This document shows positions 868 to 40,284 of a DNA stretch of 64,000 nt, in pieces; within the stretch, counting starts at the first letter, position 1; each line of letters opens with the position of its first letter. Both the position numbers and the translations under genes were made by a program. This DNA comes from Torpedo marmorata (Eukaryota). The notes below the pieces were generated by a model. That model was given only the letters and a program-made list of their open reading frames with translations, made no database searches and was not told the DNA's origin. The DNA lies in contig OZ360233.1 in NCBI GenBank assembly GCA_977017645.1, positions 18,352,001 through 18,416,000 on the forward strand, read 5' to 3'.

Positions 868-913
868 ATGTCCCTCCTGCGTTGTTTGCTGATTCTATGG
901 GTCGTTCTGACTG
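868..913 (+). CDS. Distal (extra) leader exon MSLLRCLLILWVVLTG
   Basis: accATG, 46 nt, hydrophobic signal peptide, G|GTGAGT donor; no V exon of its own. Confidence 0.8.
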
Positions 914-1239
914 GTGAGTCTGTCTGAGTGGTCATCGACTTCTGTCCATCGTCCTTTATCGACGTGTCTCCCTCTTTAACCTAATTAAAGTTCGGCGATT
1001 CCCCCAAGACTCACACTCCTTCGCTCACCCTCTGTTTACTCATTTAAGATTTCACTCTGTGCTCACTTAACTCACTCGCGCTGTCTCTCCCGCACTCCCG
1101 CTCTCGCCCCTCGCCGCTCTCGTGCGAGGGAAACGACCCCAGCCTCCAACAGAGGTTCTTCTGCTTCCGACGTGCGCTGGCGAACATATATCGGCGAGCA
1201 TTTGTAAAATATCTTTCTTTCGCATTTAGGCCGGGCACC

Positions 1240-1665
1240 ATGTTTCTCCTGAGTTGTTGGCTGATTCTATCGGCCATTCTGCCTGGTGAGACCCGTTGGT
1301 CAACACGTGACGTGCTGGATCAGCGCCATTCCGCGCCATTCACACATTCTGTGTTTTGTTCCAGGGGCGACTGGGAACGATTCAGTGACCCAAACACCTC
1401 TGGAATTGAGCATCGACGGAGAGCAGATCGTATCACTGAGCTGCATTTACTCGATGAGTCCCTTCGCATATTTTTGGTACATTCAACGTCCTGGAGACTC
1501 TCCCAAATATATGCTGAAGATCTTCACGTCGGGAGATGTGTCTCTGTCTCACGATTGTTCGGAGATGATATCGGCTTCCTTGGAGAAAAAGAGCCAGAGA
1601 TTCCATCTCAAAATCTCAGAAACCCGCGAGGAGGATTCCGCCGTTTATCTCTGCGCCGTGGAGCT
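1240..1665 (+). CDS. TRAV: TCR alpha/delta V segment, family 1a (leader 1240-1285, V exon 1365-1665), open
   Basis: Leader MFLLSCWLILSAILPG, GT-AG intron 79 nt, DSVTQ...SLSC...YFWYIQ...DSAVYLCAVE, followed by RSS. Confidence 0.88.
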
Positions 1666-1704
1666 CACACTGTTCCAGGGCGGTGGCGGATCCGCACAAA
1701 AACT
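1666..1704 (+). other. 23-bp-spacer RSS
   Basis: CACACTG-23-ACAAAAACT. Confidence 0.92.
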
Positions 1705-1989
1705 CACCTCGAGAATTTCCATCGCTCGCTGTGGCTAGGGGGCGCACTCGGGCACCGGCAGCCAGTTCTGTCGGTCAGCGCACTGGAAGCGTCAACACGA
1801 CCTTCCTGGAGAGTCTGCTGAAAACGGCAAAACCGAGTTGCAGGAGATTTGCCCTCCTCTGAGAGTTTCTCTTACTCTGCCTCCTCTGTGTCAGATTCCT
1901 TACTTTGAGGTGGAAGGTAGCAAGCCAGGGAAAGAGAAGGAGTGTTCTTGTGATGGAAATTGTGAGATTAATAAAGCGGTCTGTTTCGG

Positions 1990-2344
1990 ACAGATGCGTG
2001 TTCCTTCGGCCTGTCCTTTCTAAAATCAACAACAAGCTCCTTGGTATTGGTGACATTAAGAACAGGATTGTTGTTCTGGAACCACCCAACCAGGTTCTTG
2101 ATTTCCATCATGCATTTAGTCTCATAATTCCCAGTTATCCGGCCAACACTGGTAGCGTTGTCATCTAATTTGTAGATTGAGTTGGAGCTGAACTTGGCTG
2201 CACAGTCATGGGTGCCCATGGCATAGATTAGGGGACAAAGCAGGCAGCCTTGGACTGCTCCTGTGTTGATGGTCAGCGAGGAGGAGGTGATGCTGGCGAT
2301 CAGCACTGTTTGGGTCTGCAGTGAGGAAGTCAAAAATCCAGTCG
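1990..2344 (-). mobile_element. Rex1/Babar-like LINE RT fragment (resumes at ~5090-5330 after CR1)
   Basis: Minus-strand SSSLTINTGAVQGCLLCPLIY...KLDDNATSVG...TKELVVDFRK. Confidence 0.75.
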
Positions 2345-5089
2345 TTCTTTCAGGCGTTATAGAACAGTGGGGGGGGGGTGTGGGGGGTGGAGGGGTCGCA
2401 TTGCTTGTTAGGGAAAACATTACAGCGGTGCTTTGGCAGGATAGATTGGAGGGCTCGTCCAGTGAGGCTATTTGGGTGGAATTGAGGAATGGGAAAGGCA
2501 TGAAAACACTAAGGGAGTGTATTATACACCACCGAATGGGAAGAGGGAATTAGAGAAGAAAATTTGTAAGGAGATAGAATATATGTGTAATAAACATAAG
2601 GTGGTGATTATAGGTGATTTTAACTTTCCACACATTGACTGGGACGCCCATACTCTAATAGGGCAGGATGGGTTGGAGTTTGTCTTATGTGTTCAGGAAA
2701 GTTTTCTGAATCAATACATAGAATTACCGATTTGATAGGGGGCAGTATTGGATATCCTATTTGGGAACGAGATAGGTCAGGTGACAGAGGTTTGTGTTGG
2801 GGAACACTTTGGGTCCAGTGATCATAATACTATTAGTTTTAGGTTGATAATGGAGAAGGATAGGGCTGGGCCTAAGGTTGAGATTGTTGATTGGAATAAG
2901 GCAAATTTCGAGGAGATGAGCAAGGATTTCGAGGGTGTGGATTGGGATAATTTATTTTTAGGGAAGGATGTCACAGATAAAATGAGGATATTCAAAGGGG
3001 AAATTTCGAGAGTACAGAGTCGGTTCGTCCCTGTGAGGATTAAAGGAAGAGTTAGAAAATATAGGGAACTTTGGTTTTCAAAGGATATTGGGAATTTGGT
3101 TCTGAGGAAGAGGGATGTGTACAACAGGTATAGACAGCAGGGAATAGATGAGGTCCTTGAGGAATATAAGGAGTGTAAAAAATCTTAAGAAAGAAATTCG
3201 AAAGGCTAAAAGGAGATATGAGGCTGCTTTGGCAGGCAAGGTAAAAATAAATCCAAAGGGATTCTACAGGTACATTAAAAGCAAAAGAATAGTGAGGGAT
3301 AAAATTGGGCCCATTGAGGATCAGACGGGTAGGCTATGTGAAATGTCAGAAGAGATGGGGGAGATTTTAAATGAATTTTGTTCTTCAGTATTTACAAAGG
3401 AAAGGAATATTGAGCCAGGTGAAGTAACGAAATCTGGCAGCGAGGTCATGGATAATATAAAGCTTAATGAGGAGGTAGTATTGGCTAATTTAAAGAGTAT
3501 AAAGGTGGATAAATCTCCAGTTCCTGACAGGATATTCCCGAGGACCCTGAGGGAGTTTAGTGTACAAATAGTGGGGGCTCTGACAGAAATATTTAAAATG
3601 TCACTGGCCACGGGCGAGGTGCCGGAGGATTGGAGGGTAGCTCATGTTGTCCCGCTGTTTAAGACGGGCTCTAAAAGTAAACTTGGAAATTATAGGCCTT
3701 GTGAGTCTGACATCTGTGGTGGGTAAATTAATGGATAGTGTTCTTAGAGATGGTGTATACAGTTATTTGGAAAGACAAGCATTGATTAGGAGTAGTCAAC
3801 ACGGTTTTGTTCGTGGTAGATCATGTTTAACAAATCTCATAGAGTTTTTCGATGAGGTTACCAAGAAGGTTGACGAGGGGAAGGCTGTGGATGTTTTCTA
3901 TGTGGACATTGGTGAAGCATTTGACAAGGTTCCGCATAAGAGGCAAGTTAAGAAGGTTCAAGCATTAGGTATTAACGACGAAGTAGTGAAATGGATTCAA
4001 CAATGGTTGGATAGGAGATGCCAGAGAGTAGTGGTGGAAAGCTGTTTGTCAAATTGGAGGCCGGTGACCAGTGGAGTGCCTCAGTGATCGGTACTGGGTC
4101 CATTGTTGTTTATCATATATATTAATGATCTAGATGATAGGGTGGTAAATTGGATTAGTAAGTATGCAGATGATCCGAAGATTGGTGGTGTTGTGGACAG
4201 TAAAGAGGGATATGAAAGCTTGCAGGGGGATATAGGACAGTTAGAAGAGTGGGCGGAAACATGGCAGATGGAGTTTAATACTGATAAATGTGAGGTGCTA
4301 CATTTTGGTAGGATTAATCAGCAAAGGCCATACATGTTAAATGGAAGACAATTGAGAAGTGCATTAGAACAGAGGGATTTAGGAATTCTGGTACATAATT
4401 CCCTGAATGTTGAGCCACACGTAGATAGGGTGGTGAAGAAAGCATTTGGTATGTTGGCCTTCATAAATCAGAGTATTGAATATAGGAGTTGGGATGTCAT
4501 GTTGAAGTTGTATAAGGCATTGTTGAGGCCAAATTTGGAATATTGTGCGCAGTTTTGGTCGCCGAACTATAGGAAGGATATAAACAGAATAGAGAGAGAG
4601 CAGAGGAGATTTACAAGAATGTTGCCTGGGTTTCTGGGTTTGAGTTATAGGGAAAGATAGAACAGGCTGGGACTTTATTCCATGGAGCGTAGGAGGTTGA
4701 GGGGTGATTTAATAGAGGTATTTAAAATTATGAAGGGGACAGATAGAGTCAATGTGGACAGGCATTTTCCATTGAGAGTGGGGAAGATTCAAACAAGAGG
4801 GCATGGATTGAGATTGAAGGAGGAAATGTTTAGAGGAAACATCAGGGGGAATTTCTTTACTCAGAGGGCGGTGGGATGGGGGAACGAGCTTCCGGCCGAA
4901 GTGGTAGATGCAGGTTCAATTTTAATGGTTAGGAAAAGTTGGATAGGTATATGGACGAGAGAAGTGTGGAAGGTTATGGGCCGGGTGCGGGTCAGTGGGA
5001 CTAGGTGGGAGAATGTGTTCGGCATGGACTAGAAGGGTCGAACAGGCCTGTTTCTGTGCTGTAACTTTTATATGGGTATCTGGTGATAT
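2345..5089 (+). mobile_element. CR1-clade LINE, 5'-truncated, disrupted ORF2 (EN + RT)
   Basis: IIGDFNFPHIDW, GSSDH, SQHGFVRGRSCLTNL, SGVPQ*SVLGP, KYADD, LEYCAQFWSP, MERRRLRGDLIEVFKI; stops and frameshifts. Confidence 0.92.
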
Positions 5090-5584
5090 GACAGGGTCCC
5101 AGATGCTTTCGATTGGCCAAAGGTTTTGAGGTGAGGGTGTGGAACGAAGATGTTTCGGTGATCTAGGTGATTTAATGCAGAGTGGAGAGTCAGTGATATG
5201 GCTTCGTCCTTTGACCTATTGTGGGGATAGGCCAACTGAAATGCGTCCAGGTCATTCCCCAGATCGGAGTTAATTCGCTACATAACCAAGTTCTCAACAA
5301 TTCATCACAGTCGGTCACTTTGCTCTTATTGAGCAAGTAGGGGAGGGAGAAGACTGGAAGCGAAGCATGTGGGGGAAGGGCAGAGAAGGACAACCAAAGA
5401 GAAGCATTTATACCTGCTCGTTTTAATTCGTTCCATCGCAGCGTCATTCAGAACCAATGACCATTCCTGTGCTAGCGAAATGCTATAAATCTCAGCGCTG
5501 CGGCTGCTGCGGACGTGAATTTGTAAACTTACAGCGGGGAAACACGTAAGAACATATTTTTGTTTTGACCATTATTCGGGAACC

Positions 5585-6049
5585 ATGTCCCCAAGAGGTA
5601 CCTGCTGATTCTATGGGCCATTCTGCCAGGTGAGACTCTGTCTGATCAGTTAGCGCGTCCCGCGGATTCAGCACAGTCCCGTACCGCTCCCACACTCCGT
5701 GATTCCGTCCAAGCACGAGAGGGGAGGATTATGTGACACAAGGACCGCCGGTAGTCATGGCCGAGAAAAGGCAGACCGTGCCACTGAGCTATAGTTACTC
5801 GACGAGTCAATCCGCATATTTTTGGTACATTCAACGTCTTGCAGAACCTCCCAAATATTTGCTGAAAATGTACAGCTGGGGATATGTGGCTGCATCTCAA
5901 GTTTGCGCAAGAGGAAATCGGTGTTCTTGCAGACAAAGGGCCAGAGGTTCGACTTGACTGTCTATGGGACGCTTGTGTCGGTCAGCGCCGTATATCTCTG
6001 CGTCGTGCAGCCCACTGATCCAGGGCGATGGTGGGTCCTCAAAAACACT
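5585..6049 (+). pseudogene. TCR V pseudogene (family 1b)
   Basis: 1-nt deletion in leader gives TGA at codon 8; acceptor ccagg>ccaag; Cys23>Tyr; frameshift; RSS CCCACTG-23-AAAAACACT. Confidence 0.88.
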
Positions 6050-6904
6050 CTGGTAATTAGAAATAGGCAGTGCCACCAGGGGGCGTGCTTTCCCCCACAC
6101 AGTCCTCACCAGTGCACAGGACGGAGACGGCAACTGTGCATCACGGGAGATAGTCTTCTCCAAAGTGCAGCGCCGGTATTTACCCTGGCGTGAGGAAAGA
6201 CGTTTGTCTCACTCTCTGTTCCGAGGAGGAGGGGAGGAATTTAGAGAAAAGCGCGGATTAGGGTGGACCGCCTTTTGCGAGAGAGGAGGAGTGACAGGAA
6301 CTGCTTGGATAGGGAGTGAGCGAAAGGGTGAAAGGAATTTAGAGAGAAAGGTGAGGAGTGAGAGAGAGCGAATGAAAGGGAGAGATCGTGATTGACGAAG
6401 AGAGATATCACAGGAGGGAGGAAGTGGACAGGGAGTTGTATGTGAGAAAGAGTGTGAAAATGATTTACTGACGGAGATATTGAGAGGGCAAGAACGGGAG
6501 TGAAAGGGACAGGCGGTAGGTGCGACTGTGGGAATTGAAGGGAGGGAGAGATTGGCACTGCTCACGAAAGTTTAAATAAGTGTAAGACGGAGTCGCATAG
6601 AGGTAGGAAGCGTAAAAGAACGCGAGAAGGGGCGAGAGGGTGCAGGAAAACGAGTGAAGGTGATGGAAAGGGCGGAGCAAGAGAGAAGAAGAGAGAGACG
6701 TGGGGAGTGTAAATATAGATGGAGAAACACGTGCGAAAACGACGGAGAATGAGAAACGGCCAACATTAACAACGAGTTTTCATTGGTCCAACAACGGCGT
6801 CCTTTTGAGCCCCTATGTGAGGGGATTGGCGGCTACTGACGTGACCCCTCTTTTTATATCGGGGTAGCATATGGAAATATTCGGCTGTTTACCTTCACAC
6901 TGGC

Positions 6905-7378
6905 ATGGTCCCCATTGAGTTGTTTGATGATTCTATGGGCCTTTCTGCTTGGCGAGTCTCTGTCTGATTGGTCAGCGCTTGTCCCTCCCGGCTCAGTGCA
7001 ATCCCGCGCATCTCAGACACTGCGTGTTTCGTGCCAGGCACAAATTGGGAAAATTTGGTGACCCACGGACAGCTGTAACGGATGGCCGCGGGAAAAAAAG
7101 ACGGTGTCACTGAGCTCTTGGTACCCGACAAGGATTACCGTATATTTTTGGTACATTCAAAATCCCGTGGATTCTTCCACATATTTGATGACAGTTTACA
7201 GCTCAGGAGATGTGGTTCCGTCGCACGATTTCCCAGACAGAATGACGGTTTCCTTGGAGAAAAATGGTCGAATATTCCACCTCAATATCTCCGAAGCTCT
7301 TGGAGCGTACTTCGCCGTTTATCTCTTCGCAGTGCGGTTTGCACTGTTCCTGGAGATTGCGGAGACTTTCAAAAGCTC
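6905..7378 (+). pseudogene. TCR V pseudogene (family 1c)
   Basis: Out-of-frame leader, GC donor at 6952, both canonical Cys lost (W, F), heptamer TGCACTG. Confidence 0.85.
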
Positions 7379-8196
7379 ATTCTGATAATTTGCAATGACC
7401 GCTATCACTAGGGGCCGCTCTGGGTAGCCGCCAGCCTATCCTGACCCGCCCATGGAATAAATGCGACAGCGAGATTTCCCTGGTGAGGGTCTTCTCACAC
7501 GACAGCGTTGAGCAACAGGAGTTCGTAGCTGCTCTGAGAAAAGACGTTTCTCTTCCTCTCAATCTCCAGTGACGGAGGTTCTGAGGTGGAGGGGAAGAAG
7601 ACCGAGTGATGCATATTTGGGTGGACATTGTTTCGCGAGAGAGCAGCAGCGTCAGGAAAATGTTTGCGAAAGGGATTGAGGGATAGTGTGGGAGAAATAG
7701 ATAGGGAATCAGACGGGACAGATGAGAGAGAGAGAGAGTGAGAACAAATGAGGTAGAGATAGAGAGCGCGAAATTGAGAGTTAGAGAGATGGGAAGTTAT
7801 TTGAGAGAAAACGGGAGAGCGTGTTAAGGATTGCGAAACGTTAAGCAGGTGAAAACGTGAGACAGAGTGAGGTAGAGGAATAGAACGACTGAAGGGGAGA
7901 GAGGGTGGAGTGAGTGAAAGCGAGGGAGGAGATACGCAGAGGGAAGGAGAAAGACGCGGTGAATGTACAGATAGAGAGAGAAACTTGCGTGAAGGACGGG
8001 GAACGAGATGCAGACTGTCGTAACAACTCGGTCTGATTGGTTCAGTAATGGTTCAATAATTGCCAAACCAACCAATCCTGTGTGAGGGAAACACTCTCAT
8101 TGCTGTTCCAGGCGTTTGTCCGCTCATAACATCGACCCACCCCTTGTATAGCGGTAACTCATAGAAATATTCGCTTTTGACCTTAATCCGCGTACC

Positions 8197-8242
8197 ATGT
8201 CCCTCCTGAGTTGTTTTCTGCTTCTATGGGCCGTTCTGACTG
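8197..8242 (+). CDS. Distal leader exon MSLLSCFLLLWAVLTG
   Basis: accATG, 46 nt, G|GTGCGT donor. Confidence 0.78.
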
Positions 8243-8564
8243 GTGCGTCTGTCTGATTGGTCACCGACATCTGACCATCTTCCTTGCTCTCCGTGTCTCC
8301 CACTTTAATCTAATAAAAGTTCGGTGATACCCCAAGACTCACACTCCTTCTCTATCCCTCCGTTTACTCATTTACACTTTCATTCTGTGCTTACTGATCT
8401 CCCTCGCGCGATCTCTCCCGCACTCTCTCGCTCCTCGTCGCTCTAGTGCGAGGGAAACAACCCCTGTCTCCAAGAGAGGTTCTTCTGCTTCCGACGTGAG
8501 CTTGCGGCCTTTTATCGGGCGAGTATTTGGAAAATACCGTTCTCCCGAATTTAAGCCGGGCATC

Positions 8565-8987
8565 ATGTTCCTCCTGAGTAGTTGGCTGATTCTATGGGCC
8601 GTTCTGCCTGGTGAGACTGATTGACAACTCATTTTGCGTGGATGCAGCGCCATGCAGCGCCGTTCACACATTCTGTGTTGTTCCAGGGGCGAGTGGGAAC
8701 GATGCAGTGACCCAAAGACCGCCGGAACTGATAGTCGATGAAGGGCAGATCGTATCACTGATCTGCAGTTACTCGATGAGTGCCGAGGCATATTTCTGGT
8801 ACATTCAACGTCCCGGAGAATCAACAAAATATTTGCTAAAAATTTACACGTCAGGAGATGTGGTTCAGTCTCACGATTTTCCGGAGAAGATATCGGGTTC
8901 CTTGGAGAAACAGAGCCAGAGATTCCACCTCAATATCTCAAAAACCTGTGAGGAGGATTCCGCCGTGTATCACTGCGCTGTGGTTTT
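8565..8987 (+). CDS. TRAV: TCR alpha/delta V segment, family 1a (leader 8565-8610, V exon 8687-8987), open
   Basis: MFLLSSWLILWAVLPG; DAVTQ...SLIC...YFWYIQ...KTCEEDSAVYHCAVV. Confidence 0.82.
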
Positions 8988-9026
8988 CACTCCGTTCCAG
9001 GGCGGTGGAGGATCCGCATAAAAACT
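8988..9026 (+). other. 23-bp-spacer RSS, divergent heptamer
   Basis: CACTCCG-23-ATAAAAACT. Confidence 0.8.
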
Positions 9027-9434
9027 CTCCTCGAGAATTTCCATCGCTCGCTGTGGCTTGGGGGTGCACTCGGTGACGGGCAGCCAGTCCTGACCGTCCG
9101 CTCAATAGAAGCGACAACACGACCTTCCTGGAGAGTCTGCTGAAAATGGCAACGCGGTGTTGCAGAAGATTTGTGCTCCTCTGAGCTATTCTCTTTCTCT
9201 GCCTCCTCTGTGTCCGATTCCTTAGTTTGAGGTGGAAGGTAGGAAGTCTGGGAGTGAGAAAAAAATGGATAGCTGTTTCCAAGAATATTGTAGGAAAAGG
9301 GAAGGAGTGTTTTAGTGATGGAAATTGAGAGATTAAAAAAGTGGTGTGGGTAGGAGTGGAGCGTTACCCCTCGGCCTGCCCTTCCTAAAATCAACAAGCT
9401 CCTTGGTCTTGGTGTCATTAAGAAACAGATTGTT

Positions 9435-10076
9435 TATACTCCAGATGTAGCTACGACCCAATCCAATAACTGCTCTTTTCGGGGTTATTGAACCAGACAT
9501 AGGGAGTTTTTCTGTACCTGTTCAACGGGTTGTGGCCTTCTCTACATTGTTGGCTATAAGAGCCATCCTATTCAAATGGAAAGATTCTGGATCTCCAACA
9601 GTGTTTCAATATTTTCCTCGTATTATGTCTTGTTTAAGCTTAGAAAAAGTTAGATATTATGTATTTGATTCATGGGTGAAATTTGAAGATAAATGGCGAC
9701 CTTTTATGTCTTATTTTCATATGATGTAAGTGTTTCTAATGTAATTAGATGTATTTAGTCTTCCTTTGTTTTTTGATTTACGGTAGGAACCAAAAATTAC
9801 AAAATATGTTTAACCTTCAGGATAAGCTGCTCAGCTGTTTTTTGTTAGTTGTTTTTTTTAAAATTAGTGTTGGTTCGGTGGTTTTTGTTTAATATATAAT
9901 ACTTTTGATTTTTTTTAAATTGTCACCTATTGCAGTGGAGCGGGGATCGAATTTATACTGTTTGAAGTTTTATTTTAATATTTATAAATATGTGATATTG
10001 TATTTTCAATTTCGTTCTATTTTATTCATTGTATTGTATTTCTTATAAAAATAAAAATTAAAAGATTTAAAAAGAA
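9435..10076 (+). mobile_element. L1/Tx1-clade LINE 3' fragment inserted in Rex fragment
   Basis: ORF2 C-terminus (LLAIRAILFKWK...LSLEKVRY...KFEDKWRPFMSY), T-rich 3' UTR, A-rich tail, AGATTGTT repeated at 9427-9434 and 10077-10084. Confidence 0.8.
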
Positions 10077-10645
10077 AGATTGTTGTTCTGGAACCACCCA
10101 ACCAGGTTCGTGATTTCCATCCTGCATTCTGGCTCATCTTTTCCAGTTATTCACCCAACACTGGTGGTGTCGCCATCTAATTTGTAGATTGAGTTGGAGC
10201 TGAACTTGGCTGCACAGTCATGGATGCCCATGGCATGGAGTGGGGGCCAAAGCAGGCAGCCTTGGAGTGCTCCTGAGTTGATGGTCAGCGAGGAGGAGGT
10301 GATGTGGTTGATCAGCACTGTGTGGGTCTGCCAAAGAGGAATTCAAAGATCCAGTCGCAGTGGGATGGACAGAGTTCTAGATCCTTCAGCTTGGTCATAG
10401 GCTTTGCAGGTATGAGGATGTTGAACGCCGAGCTGTAGTCAATGAACAACAGCCCCACGAAGGTGTTTCGGTGGTCCAGGTGATTTAATGCAGAGTGGAG
10501 AGTCAGCGATATTACGCCGTCAGTTGACCTGTTGTGGCGATTGGTGAACTGAAGTGGGTCCAGGTCCTTCCAGAGATAGGAGTAAATTCGCTCCATACCC
10601 AACCTCTGAAAACACTTCATCACAGTCGGTCAACTTGCTCTTCTT
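10077..10645 (-). mobile_element. Rex1/Babar-like LINE RT fragment
   Basis: MMKCFQRL...LDPLQF..RHNRSTDGVIS...LLFIDYSSAFN. Confidence 0.8.
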
Positions 10646-10676
10646 GGGCACGTCAGGGAGGGAGGAGATTGGAAGC

Positions 10677-13600
10677 AAATACACACCGAAATGCTGGAGG
10701 AACACAGCCGGTCTCGCAGCGTCCATAGGTGGGACAGATATCTAACCAACGTTTCGGCCTAAGCCTTTTTTCAAGGAATAAGTAAAGCTCAGGAAGGCGT
10801 CAGAATAAAAACTGAAGACTGGCAGGTGGAGGAGTCCAGAATAACAGGTGTTTTTTTATTTTATTATTTTATTTAAACTTTTAAATCACAAAATACATAA
10901 AATAAAATATATAATCATCAAAATACATGTGATACATTTTCACCCCCCACCTCCCTCCCCTCCCTAACACCCCCATCCCCACTAATCTAGTAATATAAGT
11001 AAAAATAAAAATAAAAATAGAAAAAAAAGGAAAAGATAGTATAAGGGGAATATCATCTATAAACTAATTCTATTACGGAGGTCAAGTATGCCAGTAGATC
11101 CGATATCTAGAGATCTTCAAATCCCTAAACCCACCCACATCTCTCATATATGGGCTCCAAATTTTCAAAAAGAAATAATATTTATTACGTAAATTAGAAG
11201 TAATTTTTTTCCAGTGGTATACACGAACGAAGTTCTGCATGCCATCTTTCTAATCCTAAATCTAAATCAGATTTCCAAGTAATAGCAATGCATTTTTTCG
11301 GAACCGCTAAAGCAATTCGTACAAATTCTACTTGAAACATACTTAATTTCTTTTTAATACTAAATTTTCTAATATCTCCAAATAAAAATAACATAGGATC
11401 CATTGGAAATGTAATATTAAATACTTTATCTAAATTTGTTTTAACTTTCAACCAAAAATCTTGAATCTTTGGACAAAACCATGTAGAATGAACAAAAGAA
11501 CCTTCCTCATTATTGCATCTAAAACATAAACCTGATAATGTCGGATTAAATTTCTTTAGTTTTTTAGGTGTTAAATATAATTGATGAAAAAAATTGTATT
11601 GTACTAATCTATATCTAACATTAATAATCTTCGTCATACTTAATTTACATAATTCTTTCCAATGATTTTCATCTATTCTTACATTCAAATCTAATTCCCA
11701 TTTTAATCTTGATTTATGAATTCCTACTTTAGGCATTTTCCTCTGAAACAATTTATACATTTGAGAAATAAATTTATTAACTTCTCCATTAGTAACTAAT
11801 AATTCTAATTCATTTTTTCTTGGTAAAATCAAAGCATGACCTTATTTCTCGATTAAAAAGCTTTAACTTGATAATAAGCTAAAAATGTATTATCTAATAT
11901 ATTAAATTTATCTTTCATTCTTTGAAACGTAATAAATCTTCCAGCTTCAAAACAATCATTAATCTTCTTAATTCCATTTTGAAACCAAATTTTAAATAAT
12001 TGATTATTAATAGTAAATGGAATAAGTCCATTTTGATATAAAGGCATCCTTGGAGAAATCAATCCTTTTCCGCCTATTTCCTTATCCGTCTTATTCCATA
12101 TTTCTAACAAATGTTTAAAAATAGGCGAATCTTTCTTTCTTGTTGATATTAATTTAGAATCCCATTTATAAATAATTTCTTCTTTAGCGTCATCACCTAT
12201 ATTATTTAATTCTATTTTAATCCAAGCAGAAGTTTTATTTGAATCAAAAAATTCATTAACAAATTTTAATTGGGCTGCTTTATAATAATTTTGAAAATTA
12301 GGAAGTTGCAATCCACCCAACTCGTAAGTCCAAGTTAACTTTTCCATGCTTACTCTTGCTAACTTTCCTTTCCACAAAAATGTCCTAATAATATAATTTA
12401 AATCTTTAAAAATTTCTTGAGGAATTCCAAAAGGAATTGATTGAAAAAGATACTGAACTCTTGGGAAAATATTAATTTTCATTACCCATTAAAGTTATGG
12501 GTAAATCTTTCCAATTCTCTAAATCTTTCTTTATTTTCGCAAATAATGGTAGATAATTTAATTTATATAAATTTTCCAATTTTGTATCAACCCGCAAATA
12601 TTTAATTCCTTCTTTAGCCCATTTAAATTGTGTAATTTCTTTACATCTAGTATAATCACCTTGAGATAAAGCCACTATTTCACTCATATCTGAATTAATT
12701 TTATATCCAGATATTTCACCATATTCTCTTAATATAATAGATAATTGTTGAAGTGATATAGTAGATTTTGTCATATATATCAATACATCATCTGCAAACA
12801 AACTAATCTTATGTTCTTCCATTCAACTTTAATACCCACTATTTTAGGATCTTTTCTAACTAATTCAGCCAAAGGTTCTATTGCCAAAACAAATAAAGCT
12901 GGTGACAGAGGACATCCCTGTCTCGGAGAACGTGTCAAAGAAAATTTTGGCGATATTTGTCCATTTGTAATTACTTTAGCTGATGGTTCTTTATATATAG
13001 TTTTAATCCAATTTATAAATGTATTTCCAAAACCAAATTTTTCTAATACCTTAAATAAAAAATTCCATTCTAATCTATCAAAAGCCTTTTCAGCATCTAA
13101 TGTTACAACTAATGGTAAATCTTGTTTCTTTTTGTGCAAACCAATTAAACTAATTAATCTAGCTATATTATCCTTTGAATATCTATTTTTAATAAAACCA
13201 GCTTGATCTAGATGTATCAAATCTGGCAAATATTTAGCCATTCTATTTGCTAAAAGTTTTGCCATTATTTTATAATCTACATTTAATAATGAAATAGGTC
13301 TATATGATTCAGTTTTTAATACATCTCTATCTTTCTTTGGTATAACTGTAATTATAGCATTTAAAAATGTTTTCGGTAATAAATGAGTTTCCGTAATTTG
13401 ATCTAATACTTCCATATATGGAGGTATCAATAAATCTTTAAATTCTTTATAAAAGTCTGATGAAAACCCATCATCACCCGGAGATTTACCATTCTTCAAC
13501 GAAGAAAAAACTTCACTAACTTCTCTCATTGTAAAAGGTAAATCTAAAGAATCTCTACTCCGGTTATTCAATTTAGGTAATGTGATTTTAGATAAGAATC

Positions 13601-15752: not shown

Positions 15753-16182
15753 ATGTCCCTCAAGAGGTACCTGCTGATTGTATGGGCCATTCTGGCAGGT
15801 GAGTCTCTGTGTGATGAGACAGTGCGTCCCGCTGATTCAGCGCAATCCCGTGCCGCTCACACACTCCGTGTTTCATTCCAGGCACGAATGGGGAGGAATC
15901 CGTGACCCAAGGACCGCCGGAAATGACGGCCGAGGAAAGACAGACCATGCCACTGAGTTGTAGTTACTCGACGAGTCAATCCGCATATTTTTGGTACCTT
16001 CAATATCTTGGAGAACCTCCCAAATATTTGCTGAAAATGTACAGCTCGGGTGAAGTGGTTCCGTCTCACGATTTTCCGGATCGGATGTCGGGTTCTTTGG
16101 AGAAAAAGAGCCAGCGCTTTCACTTGACTATCTCTGGGGCTCTTGTGAACGACTCCGCCACGTATTTCTGCGCCGTGCGGCC
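15753..16182 (+). CDS. TRAV: TCR alpha/delta V segment, family 1b (leader 15753-15798, V exon 15882-16182), open
   Basis: MSLKRYLLIVWAILAG; ESVTQGPP...PLSC...YFWYLQ...DSATYFCAVR. Confidence 0.88.
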
Positions 16183-16221
16183 CACACTGTTCCTGGGCGA
16201 TGACGGATCCGCACAAAAACT
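16183..16221 (+). other. 23-bp-spacer RSS
   Basis: CACACTG-23-ACAAAAACT. Confidence 0.92.
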
Positions 16222-16605
16222 CGTTTTGAGAACGAGGAAGGTGCCGTGCAGCGCCGCGATTTACCCTTGCGTGCGCAAAGGCGATTATGTTCCTCCTCGT
16301 TCCGAGAAAAACGGGGATCAATGTGAACAGCGTTTTACCAGAGAGGAACGGAGACAGGAAATAAAGGGAAAGAGAGTTAGCGAGAGATTGATAGAAATTT
16401 AGAGAGTTAGGAAGAGAGAGATTAAGTTGAGCAGTGAGAGAGAGAGGGAGTGAATGGAAGAGGGAGGGATGTGATGGACGAAGAGAGACGAAAACGCAAG
16501 GGATGGCGACCGAGAGCGGTACTGAGAGAGAGTATGATAGTGAGTGAATGAGGGATACATTGAGCGAGGAGGATGGGGAGTGAGCGGGAGTGGATTCAGA
16601 AAGAA

Positions 16606-16640
<35 letters not shown>

Positions 16641-16913
16641 GAGAGAGAGCGAGAGCGAGAGAGAGAGAGAGAGAGAGAGAGAGTGAGAGATGTGGAGTAT
16701 ACAGAGAGGCGGAGAAACGCGAGAAGGACGGAGAATTGGAGACGGTCGGCATTAACAACCTGCTCAATGGTAGCGTCAACCTGACCCAAAAAGAAATGCT
16801 GTGCGACGAAAACGACCTGTGCATCCCCCGGGGTTGGATGCTCCTGACCACCCCATCTCGTATATCGGTGTAACATCAGGAAATGTTCTTCCTTTGAGTT
16901 ACATTCGGGCACC

Positions 16914-17297
16914 ATGTACCCCCTGATTTGTTTGTTGACTCTATCGGCCGTTCTGCCTGGTGAGTGTCTCTCTGGTTTATCAGCACGTGTCCGCCGGTTC
17001 AGCGATTCGTGTTTCGTTCTCGAAATGATTGGGGAAGTTTATGTAACATATGGACCGCCGGAACGCATGACAGGTACATTCAATATCCCGGAGAACCTCC
17101 CAGATTTTGATGAAAATGTACAACTGAGGCGATGTGGTTACGCCTCAAGATTTCGGAAGAAGATGTCGGATTTCTTTGAGGCAAAGAGCCAGGGGGTCCA
17201 CTTGACTGTCTACGGGACGCTTGAGTCGGACTCCGCCGTGTATATCTGCGTCGTGAAGCCCACTATTCCAGTGCGATGGCGGGTCCGTATAAAACGA
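16914..17297 (+). pseudogene. TCR V pseudogene
   Basis: Intact leader MYPLICLLTLSAVLPG, acceptor AG>CG, internal deletion removing Cys23/CDR1, frameshifts, degenerate RSS. Confidence 0.85.
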
Positions 17298-18179
17298 AAT
17301 CGAAATGGGCAGTGCCACCAGGGGGCGTGCTCTTCCCCCAACACAGTGCGGACCAGTGCACAGGACGGAGTCGGCAACTGTGCCTCCGGGCGAGAGTCGT
17401 CTCTAAAATGCAGCGCCGAGGTTTAACCTCGCGTGATCAAGGACGTTTGTCTCACTCACTGTTACAAGGCGGAGGGGAGGAATTCAGACAAAAGCGCGAA
17501 TCTGGTGGTTCGCCTTTTGCGAGAGAGGGGGAGAGACAGGATCTGCTGAGATAGGGAGTGAGCGAAAGGGTGAATGAAGTTCAGTAGAAAGAAGGTGCTG
17601 AGTGAGAGAGAGTGAATGAAAGGGAGAGATTGTGATTGACGAAGAGAGATATCACAGGAGGGAGGCAGTGGGGAGGGAGTGGTAAGTAAGGAAGAGTGTG
17701 AAAATTATTTAATGAAGGAGACATTGAGAGTGCAAGAGCGGGAGAGGGACAGAGGGAATGTGTGACTGGGGGAGAATGAAATTGAAGGGAGGGAAGCGAT
17801 AGGCACTGCTCTCGAAAGATTAAATAAGTGTAAGACGGAGTCGCGTGGAGGTAGGAATCTTAACAGAACGCGAGAAGGGGCGTGAGAGTGCAGTAAAACG
17901 AGTAAAGGTGATGGAAAGGGCGGAACGAGAGAAAAGAAGAGAGAGGCCTGGGGAGTGTAAATATAGGTGGAGAAAGACGTCCGAAAAAGACGGAGAATGA
18001 GAAACGGCCAACATTAACAACCTGTTTTCATTGGTTCAACAACGGCGCTCTCTTGAGCCCATGTGCGAGGAGGTCGCCCTCCTGTGTGTCCCAGAGGATG
18101 AGCTGCTACTAACGAGACCCCACTGTCTTATATCGGGACAGAATATGGAAATATTCGGCTATTCACCTTCATTCTGGCT

Positions 18180-18637
18180 TCCTCACCATCCAGTAGTTTG
18201 CTGATTCTTTGGGCCGTTCTGCTTGGCGAGTCTCTGTCTGATTGGTCAGCGCGTGTCCCTCCCGGCTCAGCGCAATTCCTCGCATATCACACACTGCGTG
18301 TTTCATTCCAGGCACAAATGTGGAAATCTAGTGACCCACGGACCGATGGAACGGATGGCCGCGGTAAGTGTCGCTGAGCTCTGGTTACCCGAAAAAGGCT
18401 GCCGTATGTTTTTGGTTCATTCAAGTTCCCGTGGAGTATTGGATATATTTGGTGAAAATGTACAGCGCAGGAGATGAGGTTCCGTGTCACGATTGTCCGG
18501 ACAGGATGACGGGTTCCTTGGAGAAAAGGGGCCGGATGCCTTAATATCTCCGAAGCTCTTGAAGCGGACCTGGCCGTTTATGTCTGCGCGGTGCGGCTCA
18601 CACTGTTCCTGGGATATTGCGGAGACGCACAAAAGCT
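18180..18637 (+). pseudogene. TCR V pseudogene (family 1c) with intact RSS
   Basis: No leader ATG, GC donor, deletions and frameshifts; RSS CACACTG-23-ACAAAAGCT at 18599-18637. Confidence 0.85.
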
Positions 18638-18904
18638 CATTCTGAGATGGGAAGTGGTTTGACAGAAAATGGCAGAAAGAAGACGGGAGAGCGTGTTAAG
18701 GATTGCGAAAAGTTAAGCAGGTGAAAACATGAGACAGAGTCAGGTAGAGCAATAGAACGAAAGAAGGGGAGAGAGGGTGGAGTGAGTGAAAGTAAGGGAG
18801 GAGATACACAGATGGAAGGAGAAAGATGCGGGGAGTGTACAGATAGAGGGTGATATTTGCGTGAAGGACCGGGAACGAGATGCAGACTGTCTTATCAACT
18901 CGGT

Positions 18905-19015
18905 CTGATTGGTTCAATAATGGCCACACGAACCAATCCTGTGTGAGGGAAACACTCACATATCTGTCCTAGGCGTTGGTTCGGTCATAACATCGCCCCA
19001 CCCCTTGTATAGCGG
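18905..19015 (+). promoter_or_regulatory. Putative promoter of distal leader (representative of 7 copies)
   Basis: ATTGG 18908-18912, CCAAT 18933-18937, CGCCCCACCCC box, TGTATAG about 50 nt before ATG; similar block upstream of each distal leader. Confidence 0.55.
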
Positions 19016-19057
19016 TAACACAAATAACTATTCGATTTTGACTTTACTCCGCGTACC

Positions 19058-19103
19058 ATGTCCTCCCTGAGTTGTTTGCTGATTCTGTGGGCCGTTCTGA
19101 CTG
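19058..19103 (+). CDS. Distal leader exon MSSLSCLLILWAVLTG
   Basis: accATG, 46 nt, G|GTGAGT. Confidence 0.8.
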
Positions 19104-19448
19104 GTGAGTCTGTCTGATTGGTCAGCGACGTCTGTCCATCGTCCTTGCTCTACGAGTCTCCCTCTTTAACTTAATTAAAGGTGGACAATTCCCCCAGGTC
19201 ATACCCTCTCCGTCGCACGTTTCCCACCGTTTAATCATTTACACACTCTCCGTTTACTGAACTTCCTCACGGTCGCTCTATTTCTGTCGCTCTACCTCTA
19301 TCTCTCTCTCTCTCGCTCCTCGCCGTTCTCGTGAAAGAGAACCGGCTCGTGTCTCCAACAGAGTTTCTGCTGCTTCCACGTGAGTTTGCGCTCTTCTATC
19401 GGGCGAGCATTTGTAAAATATTCTTCCTTCGAATTTAATCCGGGCATC

Positions 19449-19874
19449 ATGTTCCTCCTTTGTCCTTCGCTGATTCTATGGGCCGTTCTGCCTGGTGAGA
19501 CTGATTGATCAACACGTGTTCCGCGGGGTCAGCGGCGTTTCGCGCCGTTCACACATTCTGTGTTTTGTTCCAGGGGCGAGTGGGAACGATTCAGTGACCC
19601 AAGAACCGCCGGAATTGATTTTCAATGAAGGGCAGATCGTATCACTGAGCTGCAGTTACTCGATGAATCCCAATGCATATTTTTGGTACATTCAACGTCC
19701 TGGAGAATCTCCCAAATATTTGCTAAAAATCTACACGTCAGGAGATGTGGTTCCGTCTCCCGATTGTCCGGAGAGGATATCGGGTTCATTGGAGAAAAAG
19801 AGCCAGACATCCCACCTCAATAACTCGAAAACCCTTGTGGAGGATTCTGCCGTGTATCTCTGCGCCGTGAAGCT
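19449..19874 (+). CDS. TRAV: TCR alpha/delta V segment, family 1a (leader 19449-19494, V exon 19574-19874), open
   Basis: MFLLCPSLILWAVLPG; DSVTQEPP...SLSC...YFWYIQ...DSAVYLCAVK. Confidence 0.88.
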
Positions 19875-19913
19875 CACACTGTTCCAGGGCGGTGGCAGAT
19901 ACGCACAAAAACT
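19875..19913 (+). other. 23-bp-spacer RSS
   Basis: CACACTG-23-ACAAAAACT. Confidence 0.92.
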
Positions 19914-21570: not shown

Positions 21571-21613
21571 TCTTGGTCTGCAGTCAAATGATCTACCACT
21601 GAGCTATGCCCTC
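21571..21613 (-). pseudogene. tRNA-Cys(GCA) 5'-half retrocopy, duplicate
   Basis: Same insert as 641-683 at offset 20930. Confidence 0.85.
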
Positions 21614-21797
21614 ATCGAGATACAGACGTTCTTAACAACTCGGTCTCATTTGTTCAATAATGGACACACGAACCAATCCTGTGTGAGGGAAACACTCTCA
21701 TATCTATCCCCAGGCGTTGGTACGCTATAACATCGCCCCACGCCTTGTTTTGCGGTAACACAAATAAATATTCGCGTTTTACCGTAATCCGCGTACC

Positions 21798-21843
21798 ATG
21801 TCCCTCCTGCGTTGTTTGCTGATTCTATGGGTTGTTCTGACTG
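21798..21843 (+). CDS. Distal leader exon MSLLRCLLILWVVLTG
   Basis: accATG, 46 nt, G|GTGAGT. Confidence 0.8.
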
Positions 21844-22158
21844 GTGAGTCTGTCTGAGTGGTCATCGACTTCTGTCCATCGTCCTTTATCGACGTGTCTC
21901 CCTCTTTAACCTAATTAAAGTTCGGCGATTCCCCCAAGACTCACACTCCTTCGCTCACCCTCTGTTTACTCATTTAAGATTTCACTTTGTGCTCACTTAA
22001 CTCACTCGCGCGGTCTCTCCCGCACTCCCGCTCTCGCCCCTCGCCGCTCTCGTGCCAGGGAAACGACCAGAGGTTCTTCTGCTTCGGACGTGCGCTGGCG
22101 AACATATGTCGGGCGAGCATTTGTAAAATATCTTTCTTTCGCATTTAGGCCGGGCACC

Positions 22159-22584
22159 ATGTTTCTCCTGAGTTATTGGCTGATTCTATCGGCCATTCTG
22201 CCTGGTGAGACTCGTTGGTCAACACGTGACGTGCTGGATCAGCGCCATTCCGCGCCATTCACACATTCTGTGTTTTGTTCCAGGGGCGAGTGGGAACGAT
22301 TCATTGACTCAAACACCTCCGGAATTGAGCATCGACGGAGAGCAGATCGTATCACTGAGCTGCATTTACTCGATGAGTCCCTTCGCATATTTTTGGTACA
22401 TTCAACGTCCTGGAGACTCTCCCAAATATATGCTGAAGATCTTCACGTCGGGAGATGTGGCTCTGTCTCACGATTGTTCGGAGATGATATCGGCTTCCTT
22501 GGAGAAAAAGAGCCAGAGATTCCATCTCAAAATCTCAGAAACCCGCGAGGAGGATTCCGCCGTTTATCTCTGCGCCGTGGAGCT
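22159..22584 (+). CDS. TRAV: TCR alpha/delta V segment, family 1a (leader 22159-22204, V exon 22284-22584), open
   Basis: MFLLSYWLILSAILPG; DSLTQTPP...SLSC...YFWYIQ...DSAVYLCAVE. Confidence 0.88.
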
Positions 22585-22623
22585 CACACTGTTCCAGGGC
22601 GGTGGCGGATCCGCACAAAAACT
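22585..22623 (+). other. 23-bp-spacer RSS
   Basis: CACACTG-23-ACAAAAACT. Confidence 0.92.
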
Positions 22624-36375: not shown

Positions 36376-36823
36376 CACCTCGAGACATTGAATCGGACCC
36401 TATGGCTAGGGGGCGCTCTCGGCCACGCAATGGATGCGAATACACGACCTTCCTGGAGAGTCTGCTGCAACGCCGAGATGCAGGAGATTTCCCCTCCTCT
36501 GAGCGTTTCTCTTTCTCTGCGTCCTCTGTGTCTGATGCCGTAATTTGATGTAGAAGGTAGGAAGTCACGGAGAGAGGAAGAAAACGGATAGCTGTTTGCC
36601 AGAATGAAAATGAAGGAGTGTTTGTTAGATGGAAATTGAGAGGTTAAAAAAGCGGTAAACCGCGCGGGTGGGTGTGACCGGTAGGTGATCCTTCGGCCTC
36701 TCCTTCCCAAAATCAACAACAAGCTCCTTGGTCTTGGTGAAAATAAGAACAAAATTATTGTTCTCCAACCACCAAACCAGGTTCACCATCTCCATTCTGC
36801 ATTCTGACTCATCTTTTCCAATT

Positions 36824-38305
36824 ATTATCGAGCGGCACAAATGCGATTTGTTGCATATTTTTTTGAAACTGAAGTGGGTTGGAATAGAACTAGGAGAAAT
36901 AGGAGAAAAGAAACCACAAGAATGCATATACAAATGGAATTCAAAACTGCTGACAGGGGTTAAAGAAACGCCGTTATTAAATCATTTGATTAATGCTTGG
37001 AATAAAGTTAATGATGACATAGGGTTGAAAGGAAGTATATCACCCAAAATGCCTTTGATACAGAATAATCTGATACCATTTACAAAAGATAATCAAATTT
37101 TAAATACTTGGTCATTAAAAGGAATAAAGAAGATAGAAGATTGTTATGAAGGAAATCAAATGATGTCATTTATACAATTACGGAATAAATATGGAATACC
37201 TAATAATACACTTTTTTGTTATTTTCAATTAAGAGGTTATTTAAGAGAAAACGTAGGTCCAGACTTGTTGTTACATGATTGTAGTGAGGTAGAAACTCTT
37301 ATTAGGAAAGGAAATACTAAGAAATTTACTTCTATAGTGTATTCTTTGCTACAAAGGGGAGCTTTAAAACGAGGACTTCATAAATCTAGACAAAGATGGG
37401 AACAAGATCTTAATGTTATAATTGATGAAAAAAGGTGGTCGGATTTATGTTTAGATAGTATGACTAATACTGTTAATGTAAGATATAGATTGGTACAATA
37501 TAACATTTTACATCAATTATATCTTACACCACAAAAATTGAACAAGATAAAGTCTACGATATCAAATGGATGCTTTAGATGTGGTGAAGAAGAGGGAACT
37601 TTTTTACATTCAACGTGGTCATGTTCAAAAGTTAAAGGTTTTTGGATAGAGTTAGGAAATCGGTTAAAACAAATTACAGGTGTTACATTTCCACAGAATC
37701 CTGACTTATTTTTATTGGGAAACGTGGAAGGAACTCGACCAAAATTGAAGTTATCTACATGGCAATTGAAATTTGTTAAAATTGCATTAGCAGTAGCAAG
37801 GAAATGTATAGCAGTAACTTGGAAATCGGATACAAATTTAAGTATGGATAGATGGAATTCAGAGATGCAGAGTTGTATTCCATTGGAAAGAATAACATAT
37901 AATATGAGGAATAAATATGGGGTATTTTTGCAAATTTGGCGTCCATTTATCCAATTATTAGGAATGAATATTTAAATGTGTTGCCCTACATCCTAGACCT
38001 TACTGACTCTCTGAAATTTAAATTTAAAGAACGAACATTGTTGAATATCTTGCACCGAGCCGTGGACCCGTACAGATATTTTTCTTCCTCTATCTTTCTT
38101 TTCTTATTTTTAGTAAGGGGAGGGAATAAGGGATGGGAAGGGTGGAGGGTGGGTTGTTTTAGTGAGGGTGGGTTTAGATGGGGTTAGAATCACGGTAATA
38201 CGAATTTTGTATGTATTGAATTTATTAATGTTTATTATGTACCTTGTACTATTCTGTATTATTGTGAAAAATTTGAAAATTTAAAATAAAATATAAAAAA
38301 AAAAC
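36824..38305 (+). mobile_element. L1-clade LINE 3' fragment
   Basis: ORF2 C-terminal region with CFRC...H..WSC zinc knuckle, ending QIWRPFIQLL; 3' UTR; AATAAA and poly-A. Confidence 0.88.
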
Positions 38306-38906
38306 GAAAAAACAAGCTCCTTGGTCTTGATGACACTAAGAACAAAATTGTTGTTCTCGAACGACCCAACCAGGTGCTCTATATCCATTTTGCAATCTGA
38401 CTCATCTTTTCCAGTTATTTGGCCAAGACTGGTGGTGTCTTCAGCTAATTTGAAGATTGAGTTGGGGCTGAACTTGGCTGAACGGTCAATTGGTGCACAT
38501 GGCAGAGATTGAAGGGAGGGGAGCGATAGGCACTGCTCTCGTAAGATTAAATAATTGTAAGACGGAGTCGCGTAGAGGTAGGAAGCTTAACAGAACGCGA
38601 GAAGGGGCGTGAGGGTGCAGGAAAACGAGTGAAGGTGATGGAAAGGGCGGAACGAGAGAAAAGAAGAGAGAGACGTGGGGAGTGTAAATATAGGTGGAGA
38701 AACACGTCCGAAAAAGACGGAGAATGAGAAACGGCCAACATTAACAACCAGTTTTCATTGGTTCTTCAACGGCGCTCTCTTGAGCCCATGTGCGAGGAGG
38801 GCGCCTTCCTGTGTATCCTAGAGGACGGGCTGCTACTAACGAGACCCCACTGTCTTATATCGGGGCAGAATATGGAAATATTCGGCTGTTCACCTTCATT
38901 CTGGGT

Positions 38907-39053
38907 TCCTCACCATCCAGTAGTTTGCTGATTCTTTGGGCCGTTCTGCTTGGCGAGTCTTTGTCTGATTGGTCAGCGCGTGTCCCTCCCGGCTCAGCGC
39001 AATTCCTCACATATCACACTGTTTCTGGGATATTGCGGAGACGCACAAAAGTT
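38907..39053 (+). pseudogene. V-less relic with RSS, duplicate
   Basis: RSS CACACTG-23-ACAAAAGTT at 39015-39053 without V exon. Confidence 0.88.
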
Positions 39054-39473
39054 CATTTTGAGATGGGAAGTGGTTTGAGAGAAAACGGCAGAAAAAAGAC
39101 GGGAGAGCGTGTTAAGTATTGCGAAAAGTTAAGCAGGTGAAAACGTGAGACAGAGTGAGGTAGATAAATAGAACGAAAGAAGGGGAGTGAGAGTGGATTC
39201 TCTGAAAGGGAGGGAGGAGATACACAGCTGGAAGGAGAAAGATGCGGGGAATGTACAGATAGAGGGTGCAATATGCGTGAAGGACGGGGAATGATATGCA
39301 GACTGTCTTATCAACTCGTTCTGATTGGTTCACGAATGGCCACACGAACCAATCCTGTGTGAGGGAAACACTCACATATCTGTCCTTGCCGTTGGTTCGC
39401 TCATAATATCGCCCCACCCCTTGTATAGCGGTAACACAAAGTAATATTCGATTTTGACCTTAAACCGCGTACC

Positions 39474-40284
39474 ATGTCCTCCCTGAGTTGTTTGCTGATT
39501 CTGTGGGCCGTTCTGACTGGTGAGTCTGTCTGATTGGTCAGCGACGTCTGTCCATCGTCCTTGCTCTACGAGTCTCCCTCTTTAACTTAATAAAAAAGGT
39601 AGACGATTCCCCCGAGTCATACCCTCTCGGTCGCACGTTCTCCCACCGTTTACTCATTTACACACTCTCTGTTTAATGAACTTCCTCACGGTCGCTCTGT
39701 CGATCTATCTCTCTCTCTCTCTCGCTCCTCGCCGTTCTCGTGAGAGGGAAACGGCCCGTGTCTCCAACAAAGTGACTGCTGCTGCCGACGTGAATTTGCG
39801 CTCTTCTATCGGGCGAACATTTGTAAAATATCCTTCCTTCGAATTTAATCCACGCATCATGTTCCTCCTTAGTTGTTAGCTGATTCTATGGGCCGTTCTG
39901 CCTTGTGAGACTGATTGATCAACACGTGTCCCGCGGGGTCAGTGCCGTTTCGCGCCGTTCACACATTCTGTCTTTTGTTCCAGGGGCCAGTGGGAACGAT
40001 TCAGTGACCCAAGAACCCCCGGAATTGATTGTCAATGAAGGGCAGATCGTATCACTGAGCTGCAGTTACTCGATGAATCCCGCTGCATATTTTTGGTACA
40101 TTCAACGTCCTGGAGAATCTCCCAAATATTTGCTGAAAATCTATGCGTCAGGAGATGTGGTTCCGTCGCCCGATTGTCCGGTGAGGATATCGGGTTCATT
40201 GGAGAAAAAGAGCCAGACATTCCACCTCAATAACTCGAAAACACTTGTGGAGGATTCTGCCGTGTATCTCTGCGCCGTGGAGCT
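39474..40284 (+). CDS. TRAV: TCR alpha/delta V segment, family 1a; V exon 39984-40284 open; usable only via distal leader 39474-39519
   Basis: Proximal leader 39859-39904 has TAG (39877-39879) and weakened donor T|GTGAGA; distal leader intact. Confidence 0.75.

Follow-up and report, generated by a model that had tools for sequence, protein, structure and literature searches.

A Torpedo marmorata V gene family with two tandem leader exons and the possible use of a leader borrowed from a V-less neighbor

In a 64,000-nucleotide stretch of the Torpedo marmorata genome (hereafter the window; C45:18352001-18416000, contig OZ360233.1, in an assembly of 6.2 Gb), the variable (V) gene segments of one family, here called f1, are each preceded by two leader exons, one distal and one proximal to the V exon. 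The sequence gives good support for regarding the distal leader and its promoter as those of a distinct V gene that has lost its V exon. We consider it somewhat more probable than the opposite that most f1 copies start transcription at this distal promoter and splice the leader of the V-less neighbor onto the V exon, thereby skipping the native leader. For the main subfamily, M, use of the distal leader appears likely.

A stretch of 456 kb around the window was annotated and contained 210 V-like loci, fragments included, which fall into the classes f1 (55), f1c (28), fb (47), fd (45), and f2 (35). Two 46-nt leader exons were found in 55/55 f1 copies and in 0/155 of the other V-like loci, and the arrangement is therefore not due to chance. 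In f1c, fb, fd, and f2 either one leader or none was detected, and families further downstream have one where any was detected; a third leader match, at about -1050 in eight f1 copies, is the dead leader of an adjacent pseudogene. The distal leader retains its ATG, open frame, and GT in all 55 copies, with the donor GTGAGT in 44, GTGCGT in 10, and GTGGGT in 1. Proximal leaders are intact in 46 copies and dead in nine, seven of which have ATA for the start codon and two of which carry TAG. A T at position -1 of the proximal donor occurs in five copies (one of them also with TAG), leaving 42 proximal leaders unblemished. V exons are open in 52/55 copies, including 8/9 of the genes with a dead proximal leader, and they are under purifying selection: one nonsense change was seen versus 13.9 expected, and the ratio of nonsynonymous to synonymous differences (pN/pS) between subfamilies is 0.49-0.58, with intervals below 1. 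The copies form three subfamilies, M (37 copies), Q (10), and T (8).

Seven f1 copies lie in the window. An earlier note on this DNA had placed 14 leader exons of 46 nt there; their positions and size were confirmed, and all 14 end in phase 1. Its observation that two leaders stand before every V exon of the family, the distal one always with ATG, open frame, and donor, extends from these seven copies to all 55. The V exons are 301 nt long and are followed by a recombination signal sequence (RSS). The copies are arranged as follows:

718..913 (+): copy 1 (subfamily T), distal promoter and leader, with ATTGG at 718, CCAAT at 743, and the leader at 868-913
914..1121 (+): copy 1, distal donor with some 25 nt of intron of the V type behind it; the rest is a CT-rich spacer seen only in f1, and there is no V exon
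1122..1285 (+): copy 1, cut-short proximal promoter (from about -120) and intact native leader 1240-1285
1365..1704 (+): copy 1, V exon 1365-1665 and 23-RSS 1666-1704
8036..9026 (+): copy 2 (subfamily Q), distal leader 8197-8242 with a GTGCGT donor, intact proximal leader 8565-8610, V exon 8687-8987, off-consensus RSS 8988-9026
18908..19913 (+): copy 3 (subfamily M), distal leader 19058-19103, intact proximal leader 19449-19494, V exon 19574-19874, RSS 19875-19913
21673..22623 (+): copy 4 (subfamily T), ATTGG lost, distal leader 21798-21843, intact proximal leader 22159-22204, V exon 22284-22584, RSS 22585-22623
28967..29957 (+): copy 5 (subfamily Q), distal leader 29128-29173 with a GTGCGT donor, proximal leader 29496-29541 without ATG (ATA), open V exon 29618-29918, off-consensus RSS 29919-29957
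35380..36375 (+): copy 6 (subfamily M), distal leader 35530-35575, proximal leader 35911-35956 with TAG, open V exon 36036-36336, RSS 36337-36375
39324..40323 (+): copy 7 (subfamily M), distal leader 39474-39519, proximal leader 39859-39904 with TAG and a G>T change at donor -1, open V exon 39984-40284, RSS 40285-40323

When leader and V exon are joined, the frame is open in 7/7 copies for the distal leader and in 4/7 for the proximal one; the intron to be spliced would measure 440-470 nt and 76-79 nt, respectively. The three dead proximal leaders reported earlier (ATA at 29496, TAG in the leaders at 35911 and 39859) were found again, and the V exons behind them, at 29618, 36036, and 39984, are indeed open. 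The claim that the RSS are intact as well holds less widely, as those at 8988 and 29919 are off-consensus. An RSS with a 23-bp spacer lies 3' of the V exon in all 55 copies and is off-consensus in all ten members of Q; the nonamers of the RSS at 36337 and 40285 are ACAAAATCT.

The window is a dense plus-strand array of V gene segments with 23-bp-spacer RSS. The f1 V exon matches the Pfam V-set domain (E=2e-12) with both cysteines and the conserved tryptophan present, T-cell receptor (TCR) alpha chains are among its top single-domain matches in PDB, and its nearest named protein is the skate model LOC129694719 (49% identity). In addition, when the second V domain of a shark two-V model, which we take to be of the NAR-TCR type, was compared with the whole genome, its best match lay 1.19 Mb downstream on the same strand. 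On these grounds we regard the array as the V portion of a TCR alpha/delta locus in an elasmobranch. Scans of 856 kb and of 200 kb found no joining or constant region motifs, and a scan of the 100 kb preceding 18.046 Mb turned up no V gene, which puts f1 at the far 5' end of the array. Protein searches for cDNA-derived relatives that might show which leader is in use, which returned 0, 6, and 3 matches and the best 150 of 2805, gave no f1 orthologue above 50% identity, and none of the 157 proteins examined had an informative N-terminus. Elasmobranch TCR alpha/delta V families share with f1 the V-set domain, a YxC end, the 23-RSS, and an LP-G leader end. The YHC motif of subfamily Q was considered as a sign of decay and rejected, since an expressed nurse shark alpha V family also ends in YHC; in the primer table of that study, the alphaV5 primers encode QEGEII and DSAVYH (PMC5931798).

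The origin of the two leaders can be read from their surroundings. Alignment to other families runs without a break from the proximal leader through its 76-79-nt intron into the V exon, and the proximal leader is therefore the native one; it ends in LP, as in other families and the skate homologue, whereas the distal leader ends in VLT. Going upstream, the proximal promoter loses its homology to other V promoters at about -125. Its region -230..-126 shows no homology to any class (z -0.8 to 1.2), whereas the same region of the distal promoter reaches z 3-8 against four classes. ATTGG is present in 47/55 distal versus 1/55 proximal promoters (26/28, 10/10, and 15/16 in single-leader families) and CCAAT in 47/55 versus 0/55 (28/28, 7/10, and 16/16). 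The earlier statement that the distal leaders sit behind such boxes thus holds for most copies, but ATTGG is lost in the copy at 21798. Past the distal donor, V-intron homology stops after about 25 nt and gives way to the CT-rich spacer of about 200 nt, and no V exon lies between the two leaders. A tree built from promoter, leader, and donor places the distal units in one clade and the proximal units in another (100/100), and these two clades are not sisters; the distal clade joins fb and fdY, which are pseudogene families, though only weakly (93/79). The two promoters score 18 against each other, while each scores 34-62 against f1c, fdY, fb, or fdS. A tandem duplication of the native leader was rejected on the basis of these scores and of the tree, and the idea of a captured upstream promoter and leader, already put forward in the earlier note, is borne out by the same tree, the retained upstream promoter homology, and the missing V exon.

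In the simplest history, one old rearrangement would have removed the V exon of the upstream gene together with the CCAAT region of the downstream gene. This event would predate the split of M, Q, and T, and the fused cassette would then have been amplified to 55 copies. Divergence between the subfamilies amounts to 18-31% for the spacer and 26-38% for the short intron, which implies that the two-leader arrangement is old even though many copies are young. As a separate observation, the spacer (e.g. window 19130-19330) weakly resembles, in reverse complement, the GA-rich DNA that precedes the fb, fdY, and f2 promoters. There are 20 minus-strand matches upstream of fb leaders, at homologous places and with E of 0.14-0.96; against fdY and f2 upstream DNA z reaches 6-7.6, consisting mostly of GA repeats that are not colinear with the fb signal. 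The spacer may be an inverted promoter remnant, although this is uncertain given its low complexity.

We propose that transcription starts at the distal promoter in most copies and that the RNA then offers two donors and one acceptor, that of the V exon. The distal leader would be spliced to the V exon over an intron of 440-490 nt, and the native leader, which is not preceded by a conserved acceptor, would in most cases remain part of that intron. First-exon definition favors the cap-proximal donor. Judged by its pairing energy with U1, the distal donor surpasses the proximal one in 44/55 copies, is about equal to it in two, and is weaker in nine, so that the proximal donor is not always the weaker one, as had been claimed; the exceptions include the window copies at 8197 and 29128. 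Neither GTGAGA nor GTGCGT is peculiar to f1: farther downstream, V genes with the usual single leader have such donors too. Hydrophobicity is 3.09 for distal and 2.54 for proximal leaders, compared with 2.96-3.35 in single-leader families. If the distal donor were not used, the unspliced read-through, which is a 19-codon open reading frame (ORF) in all 55 copies, would act as an upstream ORF. The choice of leader would affect the signal peptide, the 5' untranslated region, and the promoter but leave the mature receptor unchanged. Some copies, namely those of subfamily T, probably still use the native leader. Separately, an ATTAAA or AATAAA hexamer stands 70 nt past the distal donor (+69/+70) in about 50/55 copies (e.g. 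window ~984); it is possibly a premature polyadenylation signal or a chance AT-rich sequence.

Evidence of selection on the distal leader is real but moderate. On a tree of about 1.07 changes/site, its ATG, GT, and frame took no hits versus 6.5 expected from adjoining non-coding rates (P=0.0016), while the proximal leader took 3-4 inactivating hits versus 6.6 expected (P=0.10-0.21). Variable-site counts are robust to gene conversion. Within M, the distal leader is variable at 6/46 sites against a neutral proportion of 0.36 (p=0.0017), and its ratio to the flanks is 0.36 versus 0.6-0.7 for dead-leader controls. The proximal leader of M is variable at 16/46 sites, which is the neutral level, and the difference between the two leaders gives p=0.026. 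Between subfamilies, where the neutral proportion is 0.34, the values are 30/170 = 0.18 for the distal promoter (p=0.0002), 0.17 for the distal leader (p=0.026), 0.20 for the proximal leader (p=0.059), and 0.23 for the proximal promoter (p=0.038). Subfamily Q is uninformative (6/46 versus 3/46 variable sites), and pN/pS on the 15-codon leaders (1.16 and 1.04) is a powerless test. The total leader substitution rate was rejected as a sign of selection, as dead fb leaders evolve equally slowly.

Several observations weigh against general use of the distal leader. Leaders in this locus change slowly even when dead: those of fb show 0.52-0.68 changes/site versus 1.33 in the fb V exon, and the fdY pseudogenes keep ATG in 25/25 and GTGAGT in 22/25 cases without a usable V exon. 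Once scaled by such dead-leader controls (0.45-0.9), the expectation for the distal leader falls to about 3-6 hits (P ~0.003-0.06), and the direct comparison of inactivating changes, 0/31 distal versus 3-4/50 proximal, is not significant (p=0.28-0.29). Several tests were made and the p-values are uncorrected for their number. The 3' (hydrophobic) half of the proximal leader and its donor are more conserved than those of the distal leader (0.32 versus 0.56 changes/site), and the excess of proximal changes clusters in codons 4-7 in what looks like gene conversion. In comparisons between subfamilies, constraint is about the same on both leaders and on the proximal promoter, and the two promoters do not differ significantly (p=0.29). 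In subfamily T the pattern is reversed, with 8/46 distal versus 1/46 proximal sites variable (p=0.03), and ATTGG is lost in 5/8 copies. A cyclic AMP response element (CRE)-like half-site is found in 4/55 distal promoters versus 28/28, 10/10, and 15/16 in single-leader families, whereas the proximal promoter, like that of f1c, keeps GACGTG, a near CRE-like match, in 49/55 copies.

Nor are the copies independent: their 54 distinct sequences form 36 clusters at 1% divergence and 20 at 3%. The proposed rescue of genes with a dead proximal leader is open to further objections. On the tree, the proximal defects need two changes for ATA, two for TAG, and three for the -1 T, and the spread of defects by gene conversion, if it took place, would lower the number of events further; the rescue would hang on 2-4 mutational events. 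Moreover, 7/9 of these genes belong to Q, in which loss of the proximal ATG (7/10) is joined with the weakest distal donor and an off-consensus RSS; the nine copies in which U1 pairing favors the proximal donor are all Q members with GTGCGT at the distal donor. It is possible that subfamily Q is simply fading. With regard to the TAG copies, codon 7 of the proximal leader in one clade reads TCG, TAG, or TAT (window 35929 and 39877; paralogues at C45 18.225-18.254 and 18.450 Mb), and T at donor -1 is also present in 4/5 of the TAT copies. The five TAT copies may derive from a stop, TAG being a one-step intermediate between TCG and TAT.

Taken with these objections, the earlier picture of an intact distal and a decaying proximal leader holds for reading frames but not uniformly for substitution rates. 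That the distal leader is the one in use is supported for M, by its conservation and by zero inactivating changes versus about 3-6 expected, but not for T, where the relation is reversed. Decay of the proximal leader stands insofar as 9/55 are dead; it does not extend to the 46 intact ones, to the hydrophobic half and donor, or to T, whose proximal leader is the more conserved.

The best-surviving alternative, which we regard as unlikely but worth serious weight, is that the distal leader is a silent relic, that transcription starts at the proximal core promoter, and that the nine copies with a dead proximal leader are ordinary pseudogenes; in a variant of this view, the distal CCAAT boxes perhaps serve as upstream elements about 500 bp away. 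Such a relic would fit the large majority of intact proximal leaders, their native type with the usual LP end, their well-conserved 3' half and GT, and the GACGTG of their promoters, as well as the orphan-like fdY leaders that stay intact without a usable V exon. A dead fraction of 16% would also be unremarkable in a region where several f1c V exons are broken and the fb and fd neighbors are dead. What a relic would not lead one to expect is a distal leader free of inactivating changes over the whole tree, in M more conserved than the dead-leader controls, next to a proximal leader that varies in M at the neutral level.

A less probable alternative holds that both units are live alternative first exons that have been sorted reciprocally, so that M keeps the distal leader, T keeps the proximal leader, and Q has lost the proximal ATG. 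The opposite conservation in M and T (p=0.026 and 0.030) speaks for it, as do the loss of ATTGG and an insertion in the promoter region of T, and both leaders lie below neutral divergence between subfamilies. However, the T signal comes from eight copies that amount essentially to one long branch, with one divergent copy carrying much of it. All eight T distal leaders retain ATG, open frame, and GTGAGT, and the distal donor of Q is weakest though it would be most needed there. The T insertion itself is short, lies at window ~636-690 upstream of the distal promoter, and has near-direct repeat flanks; we presume it to resemble part of a tRNA-derived short interspersed element, while ARAGORN found no tRNA gene in the window.

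Very improbable, finally, is a role of the proximal leader as an internal exon or of the distal leader as a mere expression-tuning upstream ORF: although the 19-codon ORF is universal and acceptor-like AGs lie between the leaders in 18/55 copies, such AGs are absent in 37/55 and unconserved in position elsewhere, on which grounds the internal exon was largely rejected, the AG just before the proximal ATG in T would put the leaders out of frame (46+10 nt), and the ATG-to-ATG distance has no fixed phase.

Leader use of the kind proposed here, with the distal leader spliced over the native one, has a precedent. The leader of mouse TRBV12-2 (Vbeta5.1) was reportedly first described on the V exon of TRBV13-2 (Vbeta8.2) in 1987. 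In the immgenT preprint, this combination accounts for 46,029/69,248 transcripts, and few or no mouse events of this type fall outside the TRBV12/13 families (10.64898/2026.01.30.702900); its tables S5K and S5L list other leader-splicing events and may hold closer precedents. 'TRBV12-2 + TRBV13-2' clones also appear in Table 1 of PMC12414154. Splicing of a leader to a downstream V over the native leader is thus documented in mouse, and the idea has less novelty than the earlier note implied. As in the mouse pair, f1 has an upstream V promoter and leader in phase with a downstream V that has a leader of its own. However, the borrowed leader supplies about two thirds of TRBV13-2 V transcripts in mouse, whereas its use in f1 is deduced from sequence. 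TRBV12-2 is also a complete V gene, whereas the distal unit of f1 is V-less, only 440-490 nt from the acceptor, and fixed in 55/55 copies; unlike in the mouse pair, the native promoter of f1 is cut short and the native leader is dead in nine copies. As such, f1 would work like TRBV12-2/TRBV13-2 without being a strict member of that class, its donor being V-less and fixed in all copies. When compared with an ordinary one-leader V gene, the proximal leader, 76-79-nt intron, V exon, and 23-RSS match exactly, but f1 has an extra unit of promoter, leader, and donor upstream and has lost the upstream half of its native promoter. In a literature drawn mostly from outside the subscription journals, which include the shark TCR alpha/delta locus papers, we found no V genes with two tandem L-PART1 exons and no orphan leader serving a V family, a weak negative.

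A fuller account can be offered tentatively, and we would sooner doubt it than accept it as a whole. One deletion may have fused the next V gene to a promoter and leader lacking a V exon, and the chimera may have founded the largest V family of the region. The resulting redundancy would now be resolved in opposite ways, in favor of the distal leader in M and the proximal leader in T, with the distal leader obligatory in Q and the TAG copies; this would amount to a promoter replacement in progress over 55 antigen-receptor genes, in which eight 'pseudogenes' are expressed. If the distal leader is in use, standard one-leader annotation misreads the family: it would choose unsuitable promoters and leader primers for as many as 55 V genes and miscall eight usable genes as pseudogenes. 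Leader borrowing, known as an oddity of one mouse V-beta pair, would then prove able to become fixed as the layout of an entire V family. The immunological impact would be limited because the mature receptor is unchanged by leader choice. The array also represents dozens of natural variants in which the CCAAT pair can be set against the CRE-like site in V transcription or accessibility in cartilaginous fish.

The amplified unit of the array is a four-gene cassette of f1c, fd, fb, and f1 (e.g. window 15860-19913), in which fd and fb are dead passengers, f1c is often broken, and f1 is nearly always intact. The fdY class has 25 copies at 18.05-18.45 Mb (window 16914 and 33633) with an intact-looking leader, while the acceptor, V frame, and RSS are gone; its leader may belong to a second orphan-like class that splices to a downstream V, or it may be a slow-decaying relic. 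Near-identical large block duplications account for much of the array, one of about 83.5 kb (C45 18352700 versus 18436226) and repeats 25-34 kb apart, with further positions at C45 18210757, 18235578, 18260380, and 18294574. Some of these could be very recent copy-number changes or haplotype duplications of the assembly. Further downstream, at C45 18.73-18.78 Mb, an open-looking V family and a frameshifted V family alternate in a tandem array with a single leader each.

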